Of a DNA stretch of 64,000 bases, positions 39,417 through 45,232 are shown piece by piece. Position numbers and translations under genes: made by a program. The DNA is from a virus (Duplodnaviria; Caudoviricetes). The DNA lies in IMG/VR virus record IMGVR_UViG_2547132108_000007, positions 582-64,581 of that record; one strand, 5' to 3'. The notes beneath the pieces were generated by a model, which was not told the DNA's origin, made no database searches, and saw nothing but the letters and a program-made list of their open reading frames with translations. Position 1 is the first letter of the stretch, and the number at the start of each line of letters is the position of its first letter.

Positions 39417-39426
39417 GCGTGCGAAG

Positions 39427-39694
39427 AACGTGTGCTTATTTGGACAAATCGGCCAAAAACGTGTGCTTATTTGGACAACGAAAAATGGCGTTGCGGCCAG
39501 TCGTGGCGCGGGATCTCGGCGTTTTGGGTGCGAAATTATATATTAGTCTTATGGCGTTTACTTGCCGCTTGAATACGTGGGACACCGAATGTCCCGTTCG
39601 GAATACGACATAGTTGGTGGGCGTAACTGTTCGGAATACGACATAGTTGCGAAACCTGCGAAGCCTTGCGTAGCGCGGGATTCCGGCGTTTTGG
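39427..39694. repeat. Two composite iteron-like units
   Basis: AACGTGTGCTTATTTGGACAA x2 (39427, 39458); GTTCGGAATACGACATAGTTG x2 (39596, 39629); each pair followed by GCGCGGGATYYCGGCGTTTTGG (39506, 39673). Confidence 0.85.
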
Positions 39695-40997: not shown

Positions 40998-41441
40998 ATG
41001 TCTAACGCAAAGAAACGCGCGCTTGAGGCGAAGCTTGACGGCCGCCAAAAAGTTGCTGCCCTAGCGTGTGTCGAACGCGAATTCGCGGAAACGGAGAACC
41101 GTCCGGGCTTTGACGAGATCGCGGACGAGGTCGGCGTCAGCCGAAAAACGTTATGGCAATGGCGGACGCAGTCGAAAGCGTTCATCGAGTACGTAAATTT
41201 GCTTGCGGACGACTTTCTCGAATCGAAACGGACGCTTGTTTACCGCCAGCTCATGCGGTTGATCGAAGGGCCGCAACCGTCCGTCAAGGGTATCGATCTT
41301 TACTTGCGCCGCCACGGCTTGTTGACGGAACGATCCGTCGTAGAGACGAAAGAAGCGGGCGGCTCACGCGATTCGTCCGATATTGCTTCGGAACTGGCGG
41401 AGCTGGACGACCTATTAGCGGCCGAGGACGAAGAAAAATAA
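40998..41441 (+). CDS. Terminase small subunit-like HTH protein (phBC6A51-like)
   Basis: DEIADEVGVSRKTLWQWR HTH directly ahead of terL. Confidence 0.75.
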   Translation: MSNAKKRALEAKLDGRQKVAALACVEREFAETENRPGFDEIADEVGVSRKTLWQWRTQSKAFIEYVNLLADDFLESKRTLVYRQLMRLIEGPQPSVKGIDLYLRRHGLLTERSVVETKEAGGSRDSSDIASELAELDDLLAAEDEEK

Positions 41442-41456
41442 CGGAGGTGGCTACGC

Positions 41457-43214
41457 TTGTCCTATGTCTCTGAACGCTGGCTTTCGCGCGACGAACGGGC
41501 CGAGCGTATTTCACTCATAACGGAGCGGGCACGGAAGCTAAAAGCGCTCGTTGACAGCGGCCGTGCAACGGAATACCACATCGACATGCTCCGCCAGGAC
41601 ATCGTGGAATTAAAGCGGCTGAAACGGATTCACCGGGCGGAAGTTGACGTCGCGTATTTTACGTACGAGTACCTCTCTGACGCCGGCAATCCGGAGAACG
41701 AAGATAACATCGTCCGCCACGGCGAGGACGGGATTTTACACGATCCAATCGAAGAAATCGCGCCAATCCACCGTGAATTCTTCGACTTGTGCGACCACGT
41801 CAACGATAAAGAACGTAATGCCCGTTTAGCGATCGCGGCGGCGCGGGGCCATTCGAAGTCCGGTATGTTCTCGAACGCGTTTCCGTTGCATCAAACCGTT
41901 TACCGGCGTCGGCGCTACATACTCGTCATATCCGAAACAGACACGCTGTCTAAGAAGCTTATCGGGTGGGTCAACAAGCAGCTCAAATACAACGCGAAAC
42001 TCCGAGAAGACTTCGGACCGCTGCTTTTCGAGCGCAACACGCAGAACGAAAAGGACAACGAAGAGGCGTTTATCACCGCGTCAAACACGCTCGTCGAGGC
42101 GTCATCGTCCGGCAAGCAGCTCCGCGGCAAGCGTCACGGCTCATACCGGCCGGACCTCGTTATCGTGGACGATCCGTCTTCGCAAAACAACGAAGGCACG
42201 AAGGAAGCGCGCGAAAAGCTCGTACACTGGTTCAACTCCGTCGTGGTGCCGATCGGGACGAAGTCGACCGCGATAGTCCTCGTCGGAACGATGGTGAGCG
42301 CGACTGGTCTGTTGAATCACGTGCTCAAACGTAAGGACTTCCGCTCATCGTTTCATGGCGCGGTCATTCACGAACCGGACAATCCGAAGTTGTGGGACGA
42401 ATACTGCGAAGTTTACGCGCGGGCCGACGACATCGCGGAAGCTGACGCGTTTTACGAAGCCAATCGCGAAGCACTCGAAGCCGGCGTCGTACTCGCGTGG
42501 CCGTGGCGCTGGACGTACCGGTCGCTCATGCACGAAAAGGTCAACATGGGAACGCGTGCCTACAATTCGGAGTTCCGTAATCTGGCGTTCTCTGAAGACG
42601 AACAGTTCTTCTTTCCGGAGAATTTCGCCTATTACCGATACGAGTACGACAGCGCCGGCCGAAAGTACATTCGCTACGAGGATCTCCGAGTCCCGGTCGG
42701 TGAATTGACGATTAGCGGGGCGTGGGATATCGCGCAAGGAAAGAACTCGCGCTCGTGCTATAACGCAGTGCTGACCGTCGGGCGCTACGAAAAGACCGGC
42801 CACATTTTCGTTCTTGACGAGTACGCGTCGAAAGAGCAGCCGCACGTTTACATTGATCTTATCGTCAAGAAAATCCGCGAATGGCGTCATAACGTCTTCT
42901 CTGTTGAAACGATCAACGCACAGCACGAATTCTACCGGCAGCTACAGGAAGCGCTACGGAAGGCCGGCGTAATCAGAACGAGGCTCAACGACATCAAATC
43001 GCACAAATCCGCGAAGGAGGAGCGCATTGAGTCGCTTGAGCCTCTTTGTCATAACCGTACGCTCGTTTTCAACCGGTCCCATACGATGCTTCTCGACCAG
43101 ATGGCGCAGTATCCGCACGGCGATTACGTTGACTCAATTGACGCGCTTCAACTTGCGGTCGAGAACGTCGCCAGGGCGAAGAAAGCACTACGCAACAAGC
43201 CGGAGTGGCTATAG
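41457..43214 (+). CDS. terL: Terminase large subunit
   Basis: AARGHSKS Walker A, VIVDD Walker B, VLVGT, WDIA...DSIDAL nuclease motifs. Confidence 0.9.
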   Translation: MSYVSERWLSRDERAERISLITERARKLKALVDSGRATEYHIDMLRQDIVELKRLKRIHRAEVDVAYFTYEYLSDAGNPENEDNIVRHGEDGILHDPIEEIAPIHREFFDLCDHVNDKERNARLAIAAARGHSKSGMFSNAFPLHQTVYRRRRYILVISETDTLSKKLIGWVNKQLKYNAKLREDFGPLLFERNTQNEKDNEEAFITASNTLVEASSSGKQLRGKRHGSYRPDLVIVDDPSSQNNEGTKEAREKLVHWFNSVVVPIGTKSTAIVLVGTMVSATGLLNHVLKRKDFRSSFHGAVIHEPDNPKLWDEYCEVYARADDIAEADAFYEANREALEAGVVLAWPWRWTYRSLMHEKVNMGTRAYNSEFRNLAFSEDEQFFFPENFAYYRYEYDSAGRKYIRYEDLRVPVGELTISGAWDIAQGKNSRSCYNAVLTVGRYEKTGHIFVLDEYASKEQPHVYIDLIVKKIREWRHNVFSVETINAQHEFYRQLQEALRKAGVIRTRLNDIKSHKSAKEERIESLEPLCHNRTLVFNRSHTMLLDQMAQYPHGDYVDSIDALQLAVENVARAKKALRNKPEWL

Positions 43215-43239
43215 CGACAAACAAACGGAGGGTTCACGC

Positions 43240-43353
43240 ATGAAGAAAACCGCAGCAACGATCGTATCCAACGTTTCCCACGGCATCGCGGTACTGTTCC
43301 GCAGATTCGGAAAAGGCGGTATTGGCGAAATCAGCGCGCCATCAGACTTTTAA
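43240..43353 (+). CDS. agrD: AgrD-like propeptide 2 (37 aa) MKKTAATIVSNVSHGIAVLFRRFGKGGIGEISAPSDF
   Basis: GGAGG RBS; gap-free alignment to propeptide 1 with F20, K25-G-G-I-G-E-I31, A33-P34, F37 identical. Confidence 0.8.
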   Translation: MKKTAATIVSNVSHGIAVLFRRFGKGGIGEISAPSDF

Positions 43354-43371: not shown

Positions 43372-43614
43372 ATGCAAGGTTTCATCGCGAAAGACCCGTT
43401 CAGCGGAACGGCAAATATGGACAAAAAGCTTAGCGATGTCATGACGCACCTCGTTATCTCAAACGACGGCAGCGCTGACCTAACGTTTACTGCCGGAAAT
43501 TTCACGTTGACACTTCCGGCGGGCGAGATTTTTGACGAACGGATCGACCCGTTTATGTCCTTGAACGTTATCGCAACGGGTAAGTATCACGGGTACTGTA
43601 GAGCGCGAGCTTAA
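43372..43614 (+). CDS. Small hypothetical (beta-rich) protein
   Basis: GGAGG RBS; between terL and portal. Confidence 0.6.
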   Translation: MQGFIAKDPFSGTANMDKKLSDVMTHLVISNDGSADLTFTAGNFTLTLPAGEIFDERIDPFMSLNVIATGKYHGYCRARA

Positions 43615-43642: not shown

Positions 43643-45232
43643 TTGGCGAAACTATTCGAACCCAACGCCCAGTTTCCGCCACGTCGCGATATCGAACGGC
43701 TCGCCAAGTACGCCCGCGGCCGTAAAATATTCGAGGGGAAGCCTGCGGAAGTATACGAACGGGCTTCGGAGATTTTGAGAGGCACACCATTTACGAAGCA
43801 ATTACGGCAACTCTACATCGCGGTGAACCTTATGGACGCGCTATTGACGAAGCCGGCTGACTTGCTTGTTGGTGAGGCGCCAACGTACGAAAGCGGCCTG
43901 CCTGACGCAAGCCCGCAGCAACGCGCAATCAACCGGGTCGTTGAGGAAAACGATCTCAATCAAACGGTACATGAGATTACGATAGGCGGAGGTTATCGCG
44001 GTGACTCGTGGCTGAAGACGTACTACGCCCCGCGCGTCGATTTTAGCGAGGTAAGGGCGGCCGGCTACGATTTTGACGAGCCTATGCCCGAACCGATTAT
44101 CGAAGCGGTCGACGCTGCGTGCGTTTTTCCGGAGATGTCGCGCGGCAGCCGGAAACGGTTTCGGGCCGTAAATATCGCGTACGTCGAGTGGGTGACGGTT
44201 ACGAAGTTGCCGGGTATCGACCGGTACCTTTTAAAGAAAGAGGACCGCGTCTACGAAGAACCGTACCTTGTTGTCGAGCGACATTTGCCGGGCTATATCG
44301 TACATGAGCGTTTTAAACTCATTTCAAACGGTTACGATGACCGATTCGACATTCCGATCCGGGTGTATATGATTGGTGAGCAGGTACCGACCGGACGGAG
44401 CGAAGACGTAATCAAAACGGGCGTGCCACACATTCTCGTTCACCACGTCCCCTACAAGACTGTAGACGACACGTGGGAAGGGATCAGCGGCATTGAGAAG
44501 CTTGAATCGATATTGGCGGCGATAAACGACCGGCTCGTCCAGATCGACTATATTCTGTGGAAGCATTCCGACCCAACAGCGTACGGCCCCGAAGTTGAAA
44601 TTGAGGGCGATGCGGACGGGTCTATTCGTTTTGGCGGGAAGTACATACCCGTCACAAAGGACGACGTTGCACCCGGGTACATGACGTGGGATTCGCAGCT
44701 TGACGGCGCGTTTAAGGAGCTTGACATTCTCCTCGGCCTCGTATATCAGATTTCGGAAACGCCGCAGTGGCTTTTCGGTACAACACTGGCCGAGGACAAA
44801 GGCGGTAGCGGTACGTCACATACGGACGGCAACGCAATCAAGGCGCGGTTCATGCCGATTCTCTCGAAAGTCAAACGTATCCGGGTCCACGTTGACCGAG
44901 CGATCCGTGACGCAATTTGGTCTGCGCAACTCCTCGAAAACTTCGCGAACGAGGGCGTAGACGGGTTTGAGCCGTATGAGCCCGTATATCCGAAAATAAA
45001 CTGGCGCGACGGCATCCCGAAGGACGAAAAAACCGAGGCGGAAGTGTTCCAGATTCGGACGGGCGGCCAGGCGACGCTCGACGTTAAATCCGCTATTAAG
45101 CGTATGGACGGCGTTGACGACGAACAGGCCGACGCGATCATTCAACGGATTTCGGCGGACGAGACCCGTGTGAATGGAACGGTTGATTCGACGGTATTTA
45201 ACGGCGGGTCCAGCGCGGGAGGTAGCGGATAA
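43643..45232 (+). CDS. Portal protein (SPP1 gp6-like)
   Basis: Size, position, INDRLVQIDYILWKHSDP and SETPQWLFG segments. Confidence 0.85.
   Translation: MAKLFEPNAQFPPRRDIERLAKYARGRKIFEGKPAEVYERASEILRGTPFTKQLRQLYIAVNLMDALLTKPADLLVGEAPTYESGLPDASPQQRAINRVVEENDLNQTVHEITIGGGYRGDSWLKTYYAPRVDFSEVRAAGYDFDEPMPEPIIEAVDAACVFPEMSRGSRKRFRAVNIAYVEWVTVTKLPGIDRYLLKKEDRVYEEPYLVVERHLPGYIVHERFKLISNGYDDRFDIPIRVYMIGEQVPTGRSEDVIKTGVPHILVHHVPYKTVDDTWEGISGIEKLESILAAINDRLVQIDYILWKHSDPTAYGPEVEIEGDADGSIRFGGKYIPVTKDDVAPGYMTWDSQLDGAFKELDILLGLVYQISETPQWLFGTTLAEDKGGSGTSHTDGNAIKARFMPILSKVKRIRVHVDRAIRDAIWSAQLLENFANEGVDGFEPYEPVYPKINWRDGIPKDEKTEAEVFQIRTGGQATLDVKSAIKRMDGVDDEQADAIIQRISADETRVNGTVDSTVFNGGSSAGGSG

Follow-up and report, generated by a model that had tools for sequence, protein, structure and literature searches.

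In the arbitrium system (aimR-aimP-aimX) of SPbeta-like Bacillus phages, a secreted peptide is thought to report the history of infection to later infections. To our knowledge, phage peptide signalling, where it has been described, always uses one signal gene in one regulatory locus. Genes of the agr type provide a second point of reference. The Clostridioides difficile phage phiCDHM1 carries agr3 (agrB, agrD and agrC), which is transcribed during both infection and lysogeny, and paralogous AgrB homologs in Brevibacillus and Paenibacillus phages were mentioned by Hargreaves et al. 2014 (PMC3901668). AgrB is annotated in the Brevibacillus isolates Abouo, Davies and Emery and in the Paenibacillus larvae isolates Harrison and Paisley, all of which have the same cassette order and protein families as the phage described below. 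In Harrison, gp38-41 are the four cassette genes; their annotation lists the peptide as no more than a hypothetical protein and calls the LytTR protein a "peptidase". Three families of the cassette (membrane protein, AgrB and LytTR) are represented in PHROGs. Judging from its design (Lys-x3-Gly ... Pro-Lys-Glu-Leu) and its place between AgrB and LytTR, the 42-residue gp40 (L289:3004-3132) looks like the unannotated propeptide of an isolated phage. We found no description in the literature of extra phage propeptide genes in late or other operons, nor of orphan or multiple agrD copies.

The DNA analysed here, which we call the window, is a 64,000-nucleotide stretch of a Paenibacillus prophage and corresponds to a 64.6-kb provirus record minus 581 bases. 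Downstream of the genes for DnaB and primase, it contains a four-gene cassette in the order membrane protein, AgrB, peptide and LytTR (Table 1). No Pfam match to a kinase (HisKA/HATPase) or receiver domain was obtained for any of the four products, and the multi-pass membrane protein is presumed to be the kinase-less sensor of the cassette. AgrB has a His76/Cys83 pair that does not vary among 6 homologs. The same four-gene order is found in G001, SI8, L153, P. planticolens, A3, G005 and phage Harrison. Across phages, AgrB, the membrane proteins and the other cassette proteins are 59-65% identical, compared with 74-86% for helicase and primase. This faster divergence is the pattern that would be expected of a specificity-determining module.

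A second propeptide gene follows terL directly, as the preliminary description had reported, and begins 7 nt after a strong ribosome-binding site, GGAGGG. It had been described as having no agrB nearby, and the sole AgrB gene of the record does indeed lie 31.5 kb upstream. The record also contains no second receptor, AgrB or LytTR that could serve this gene, which we refer to as the orphan. Its ATG is separated from the terL stop codon (43214) by 25 nt, and 18 nt separate its end from the next reading frame, ORF80. In a close relative (L150, described below), the 25 nt preceding the orphan ATG are identical. Because a consensus scan of the interval from terL to the portal gene found nothing resembling a promoter or a terminator, we read the orphan as a member of the packaging/head operon that starts with the terS-like gene at 40998. 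It is predicted to be embedded there with neither a promoter nor a terminator of its own. A frameshift fusion of terL with the peptide was considered and rejected, since the relative has a 10-nt indel between the two genes and an in-frame stop lies 17 codons upstream of the peptide. Ahead of the operon, the ORF-poor 1.3 kb located 5' of the terS-like gene contains pairs of 21-27-nt direct repeats (39421-39478, 39502-39527/39669-39694 and 39596-39649). These are spaced 31-33 nt apart, except for one pair that is 167 nt apart, and may be pac or regulator-binding sites.

Table 1. Positions of the cassette, the orphan propeptide gene and their neighbours in the window.
Feature	Position	Strand	Evidence or remark
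Multi-pass membrane protein, 218 aa	10502..11158	+	phrog_15604; only copy in phage
AgrB-family peptidase	11158..11715	+	Pfam 3.4e-16; only copy in phage
Cassette propeptide, 41 aa, paralog of the orphan	11712..11837	+	
Stand-alone LytTR DNA-binding protein, 137 aa	11849..12262	+	Pfam 2e-8; only copy
terS-like HTH protein, start of packaging operon	40998..41441	+	HTH_Tnp_1_2, 6.5e-26
terL (terminase large subunit), directly 5' of orphan	41457..43214	+	
Shine-Dalgarno GGAGGG	43227..43232	+	7 nt 5' of orphan ATG
Orphan propeptide gene, 37 aa, post-terL type	43240..43353	+	ORF list, BLASTP, six-frame search
Conserved core/tail of orphan: KGGIGEI-x-Ala-Pro-x-(Asp/Glu)-Phe, x variable	43312..43350	+	
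ORF80, 80-aa ORF with own RBS, directly 3' of orphan	43372..43614	+	
Portal protein, 3' of terL-portal insert	43643..45232	+	SPP1_portal

The orphan and the cassette peptide are paralogs. They align without a single gap, as had been claimed, with 18/37 residues identical (BLASTP of the pair, E=1e-9). The cassette peptide had been given an implied length of 37 residues through the omission of four C-terminal residues; its actual length is 41. A six-frame search of the 64.6-kb record returned just two matches, the orphan itself (E 2e-21) and its paralog (E 5e-5), and the back-translated core pattern occurs exactly 2 times in the window and 0 times in 100 shuffles. The orphan peptide consists of a leader of 24 residues and an invariant core that runs from K25 (43312) to F37. 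This core/tail is common to all members of the peptide family and presumably forms the region that AgrB recognizes and cleaves. Among seven core codons, the orphan and cassette genes show three differences, all of them synonymous. The earlier observation that the core is kept with synonymous changes is therefore correct, but such a count alone is no test of selection.

Outside the core, the two copies have drifted apart. The most divergent segment lies just before the core, where the orphan has the basic sequence LFRRFG and the cassette peptide has VFVFVL. The agr specificity groups differ in the linker/tail of AgrD (PMC9388083), and it is at that position that the two phage copies diverge. 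The leader of the window's orphan is also the least hydrophobic and the most amphipathic of the family, with a mean hydropathy of 0.88 (1.6-2.1 in other members), a helical moment of 1.48 and a net charge of +4. Most family members have a strongly hydrophobic 20-residue helix. Synonymous sites are saturated between the orphan and its cassette paralog (pS 0.73). A recent duplication of the window's cassette copy was rejected on this ground and because the late type shows no greater similarity to the cassette peptide of its own phage than to those of others.

The term AgrD-like, which the preliminary description had used for the orphan, is fair for its form. At 37 residues, the peptide falls within the range of a short propeptide with an N-terminal membrane-targeting helix (about 35-55 aa). 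It also has an AgrD-like acidic tail, with an invariant Pro, Glu or Asp at Pro-4 and Phe or Leu at Pro+3 in 15/15 aligned members. We take these three positions to correspond to E34, P38 and L41 of S. aureus AgrD, which are needed for processing by AgrB, and this match would place cleavage inside the conserved core. The label does not extend to the chemistry or to the profile. The ring nucleophile of AgrD, a Cys or Ser about five residues before the cleavage site, is missing: none of the 15 aligned members has a Cys, the conserved Ser residues of the family are confined to the leader (S10 and S13), and there is no Ser or Thr close to the presumed cleavage site. Canonical ring closure by AgrB is therefore impossible. 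The position preceding the core is variable (L/G/M/A/N) and is followed by the invariant Lys. Searches with the peptides gave no Pfam, NCBIfam or PHROG match at E up to 0.1 or 0.01, including the AgrD profile (PF05931), and nothing in the ESM Atlas; Rfam gave no match in the window. Adjacency to agrB is seen for the cassette paralog and not for the orphan. The peptides are AgrD-like in form and are not AgrD, the orphan lacking three defining features.

A close relative of this phage is represented by two contigs of one sequencing run, SRR28090475. Contig 119 (29.5 kb) has the order terS-terL-orphan-88 aa-portal, with an orphan that is 33/37 identical to that of the window. Contig 107 (34.2 kb) has the order DnaB-primase-membrane-AgrB-peptide-LytTR, and its products resemble those of the window closely (AgrB 84%, membrane protein 94.5% and LytTR 92% identical; peptide 33/41). 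The two contigs sum to 63.7 kb, and from their common sample, their size and their complementary content we infer that they belong to one phage. The co-occurrence of the post-terL copy with the cassette, put forward earlier as a check, is borne out in this one close relative, which keeps both copies in the same places. In this comparison, orphan pairs with orphan and cassette peptide with cassette peptide, so the duplication is older than the split between the window and the relative, and both phages have kept both copies. ORF80 is 54% identical to its counterpart in the relative.

The terL-portal junction has received many different inserts. Among 69 terL relatives fetched from a viral collection, about 25 have a gap of 15-45 nt at this junction and others have differing inserts of 130-2000 nt. 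A junction of 429-452 nt is found solely in the window, where the 429-nt insert comprises the orphan and ORF80, and in L150. The variety of these inserts marks the junction as an insertion hot spot and the window's insert as one of many. About 25 relatives have a second terS-like HTH gene at this place (loci L004-L072). The GC content of the orphan (0.51) and ORF80 (0.50) is below that of terL and the portal gene (0.55). The insert thus resembles a moron in its presence or absence at a conserved junction and in its deviating composition, and it lacks the promoter and terminator of its own that a moron would have between terL and portal.

The peptide family is not a general property of phages with this terminase. 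Searched whole, 30 records of terL relatives, 23 of them at least 90% complete, contained no member of the family (0/30), and AgrB was missing in 28/30. One of the two AgrB-positive records, G005 (L168:801-2521), has a terL that is 82% identical to the window's and carries the same kinase-less four-gene cassette. Its cassette peptide, present as a single copy, has a canonical Ser-type AgrD tail, which means that a single phage group has either Lys-type or Ser-type peptides in the same cassette architecture.

Orphans also occur in five more distant phages or fragments: G001, a P. planticolens contig, L153, L152 and L155. The first two, a 68-kb viral contig and a 69-kb circular contig of P. planticolens LMG 31457, have three copies each, one in the cassette, one in the early region after a 266-aa protein, and one at the very end of the lysis operon, behind the holin and endolysin genes. 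They have the replication module and the cassette in common with the window and a different terL. In G001, an 18-bp-stem terminator lies 9 nt downstream of the lysis-operon orphan, with no promoter between. L153, a 56-kb metagenome contig, has a cassette copy and an early orphan, and the fragments L152 and L155 have post-lysin orphans. The late placement stressed in the preliminary description is matched by orphans of related phages that also sit in late units, but three related phages also have an orphan in the early region. In another related phage, the early-orphan slot is filled by an unrelated hydrophobic peptide of 37 aa (L291:8538-8651). The three-copy P. planticolens phage forms a separate contig of 69,145 bp that is labelled circular (L184-L187), and the L152 fragment encodes a ParM-like (ALP_N) protein (L152:11051-11860). 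Together, these two features hint at a plasmid-like maintenance of the prophage.

Orphans are common, and not obligatory, in phages of this cassette type. At least one is present in 5/6 cassette-type phages, and none was seen in a complete genome that lacks the cassette. Orphans are dispensable, since two prophages, A3 and that of Paenibacillus SI8/SI92, contain the cassette and no orphan. The co-occurrence of orphan and cassette is suggestive rather than statistical proof, as it comes from few lineages and perhaps three independent placements.

The family as a whole is small. A profile search with the peptides recovered eight clusters among 5.8 billion proteins, and a full HMMER pass over 1.8 billion representatives recovered twelve at E up to 1e-3. 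The distant matches are cassette peptides with the design Lys-x3-Gly ... Pro-x-Glu-Leu. No member was found in 50,697 phage records. Matches to the back-translated core in genome and metagenome contigs were set aside as chance motifs, none of which passed the family HMM beyond the motif itself. On the minus strand of the Paenibacillus sp. SI92 chromosome, a 40-aa ORF (L175:1486-1608) resembles a remote Lys-type AgrD-like peptide (family HMM, E=6e-4). Genes for ClpP and an M24 Xaa-Pro peptidase lie beside it, AgrB is absent from its surroundings, and the ORF may represent an orphan of the wider family on a chromosome.

Evolutionary statements about the family draw on about 15 sequences. Comparison of the early with the post-lysin orphan of G001 gives 11 synonymous and 2 replacement changes (pS 0.43, pN 0.02). 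Across phages, pN is about 0.05 among orphans and about 0.15 among cassette peptides. These patterns of change point clearly to strong purifying selection in the invariant core of the early and post-lysin orphans.

The synonymous sites of these genes show a pattern of their own. In seven early and post-lysin orphans (L149:9662-9778, L148:4757-4873, L153:14116-14241, L157:14404-14523, L152:10001-10117, L174:35-151 and L155:2339-2458), the first 24 codons contain 4 synonymous changes and the last 15, counted from the invariant Lys, at least 16. The frozen 5' part contains short direct repeats, among them an 8-mer that occurs twice, 7 nt apart. Cassette copies show no such asymmetry between their 5' and 3' parts. 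A stable RNA structure behind the frozen sites was rejected, since the sequences fold no better than their shuffles (z +1.35 and +0.59).

With a single AgrB and a single sensor in the phage, the simplest model is that the late transcript supplies a second substrate for AgrB. We give about an even chance to the reading that the orphan is a functional, translated paralog that would be made from a late transcript as a second substrate of the phage AgrB and would give rise to a variant peptide. The orphan and ORF80 would have arrived together as a small insert at the terL-portal junction, and the orphan would be transcribed with the late packaging/head operon. Its product appears to keep the N-terminal membrane-seeking helix of the cassette peptide together with the invariant C-terminal core and tail. 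AgrB, produced earlier from the cassette in the replication module, could then act on the late precursor. The processed product would be another peptide, one in which the same core follows the basic LFRRFG instead of VFVFVL. This peptide might act on the same sensor and LytTR pair, or on the pairs of related phages, such that the signal output would change once the cell is in late lytic development. Translation, processing by AgrB, export and an effect on the receptor are all predictions from sequence. The low hydropathy and +4 charge of the orphan's leader speak against the substrate model, and may mean that the orphan is not a substrate in the way that other members are. The "boosted signal of productive infection" proposed in the preliminary description would be one of several readings that fit. 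An antagonist or a competitor for AgrB would fit equally well, and the product might strengthen, change or block the cassette signal.

The orphan might instead jam the signal. At the high expression level of late genes, it could compete for the sole AgrB and so stop production of the cassette signal, or it could mature into a peptide that has the shared core behind a foreign segment and that blocks a sensor, either of this phage or of its rivals, by occupying it without activation. Between agr groups, heterologous AIPs occupy the sensor in this manner without activating it. In S. aureus, however, cross-inhibition also depends on differences in the ring, and the receptor here is of a kinase-less type, so the analogy with agr may not transfer. 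The construction of the two copies would suit interference: their cores are identical, the segments before the core differ, and one AgrB and one sensor face two precursors. In AgrD, the linker/tail is the specificity-determining and most divergent part (PMC9388083). Moreover, the orphan peptides are near-identical across G001, P. planticolens and L153, whereas divergence in the cassette peptides, AgrB and the membrane proteins has outpaced that in helicase and primase. Such a combination of a constant peptide with varied receptors is compatible with a broad inhibitor. Weighing these points, we regard interference of this kind as unlikely.

Still less probable, in our view, is a role independent of AgrB, in which the orphans descend from a propeptide gene and have become membrane-active peptides inside the producing cell. 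They might act in the timing of the holin, in membrane integrity at lysis or in superinfection exclusion. Such a role would suit the four orphans that come directly after holin and endolysin genes, last in the lysis unit, and the hydrophobic 20-residue helix of most family members; the N-terminal leader of S. aureus AgrD is known for modulin-like membrane activity. The strongest protein-level constraint, however, lies not in the helix but in the C-terminal core and tail that orphans share with the AgrB-coupled copy. This constraint on the AgrB-type tail makes a membrane role less likely. In addition, no orphan was seen in a complete genome that lacks the cassette. The orphan of the window also fits it poorly, being the least hydrophobic and lying beside terL, outside the lysis module.

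For the post-terL type itself, the direct evidence of selection is weak. In the only ortholog pair, the window orphan and L150:6919-7032, there are 1 synonymous and 4 replacement changes (pN/pS 1.3). The signature of purifying selection that had been claimed for this gene is not seen in that comparison. The four replacements are all conservative and fall outside the family-invariant residues, a distribution that is not significant. Between the same two phages, the flanking terS and terL genes have pS of 0.30-0.33 and pN of 0.02. At the flank rate, 8.7 synonymous changes would be expected in the orphan, compared with the 1 observed (P=0.002). The ratio of synonymous to replacement changes differs from that of the flanks (Fisher P=0.005), and replacements occur at or above the flank rate. 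The pN/pS of 1.3 does not differ from what neutral drift would give on a recently shared segment. Long-term constraint on the window's orphan is suggested instead by its intact frame, start codon, Shine-Dalgarno sequence and invariant residues at a pS of 0.73, and, by analogy, by what is seen in the early and post-lysin orphans.

A decaying or neutral duplicate, or a nucleotide-level block such as a recombination linker or an RNA or DNA site with an incidental frame, would account for the pN/pS of this pair, its near-frozen synonymous sites, the likewise frozen 5' 75 nt of other orphan classes and the location in a general insertion hot spot, but we consider it improbable, as both phages have kept an open frame, the start codon, the Shine-Dalgarno sequence and each of the 15 family-invariant residues despite saturated synonymous divergence from the cassette paralog, no stable RNA structure is predicted, and protein-level purifying selection is clear in the core of the other orphan classes.

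A wider reading can be sketched for these phages as a group. They might use two channels of peptide language. A fast-diverging, "private" propeptide would co-evolve with AgrB and the sensor, and one or two orphans conserved across phages would be expressed from late (packaging or lysis) or other units. Their products, with the invariant Lys core possibly closed by AgrB as a lactam, would tell neighbouring lysogens and incoming relatives about a lytic burst, or jam them. We put this forward as speculation that is rather unlikely to hold in full.

The arrangement itself is what merits attention: one processing enzyme and one sensor are set against two or three precursor genes in different temporal units, repeatedly so across independent phage lineages. 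Should the products of the orphans be secreted, phages could encode stage-specific or competing messages. Secretion would also offer a handle on the distinction between "prophage present" and "lysis in progress", as well as on how related phages interfere with each other's signals. A 37-codon gene, a single AgrB and a single LytTR make for a system compact enough for clean genetics, and the two precursors provide paired natural substrates with which to study the chemistry of AgrB products that have no Cys.

Compared with staphylococcal-type agrBDCA, the phage peptides have the same general build, being short propeptides in which a membrane helix at the N terminus is followed by a variable middle and a conserved acidic, Pro-containing tail, and the cassette paralog comes directly after an AgrB-family peptidase with invariant His and Cys. 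They differ in having no Cys or Ser for a thiolactone or lactone, with the invariant Lys one position from the nucleophile site. The phage also has no AgrC kinase, and its LytTR protein has no receiver domain. In addition, canonical loci have one agrD, whereas the phage orphan lies inside a virion-assembly operon 31.5 kb from agrB. Like our phage, phiCDHM1 carries agr-type genes, but these form a single accessory locus with a histidine kinase and one canonical Cys-type agrD, which is not duplicated in a late operon. The idea from which this analysis started has its functional parallel in arbitrium. The proteins of that system are unrelated, with an intracellular TPR receptor, a Sec-exported hexapeptide that is trimmed extracellularly, and a single early peptide gene. 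Abouo, Davies, Emery, Harrison and Paisley have the cassette in common with our phage, and no orphan propeptide copies have been described for them. The kinase-less cassette is thus already present in isolated phages, and the novel element is the orphan copies.
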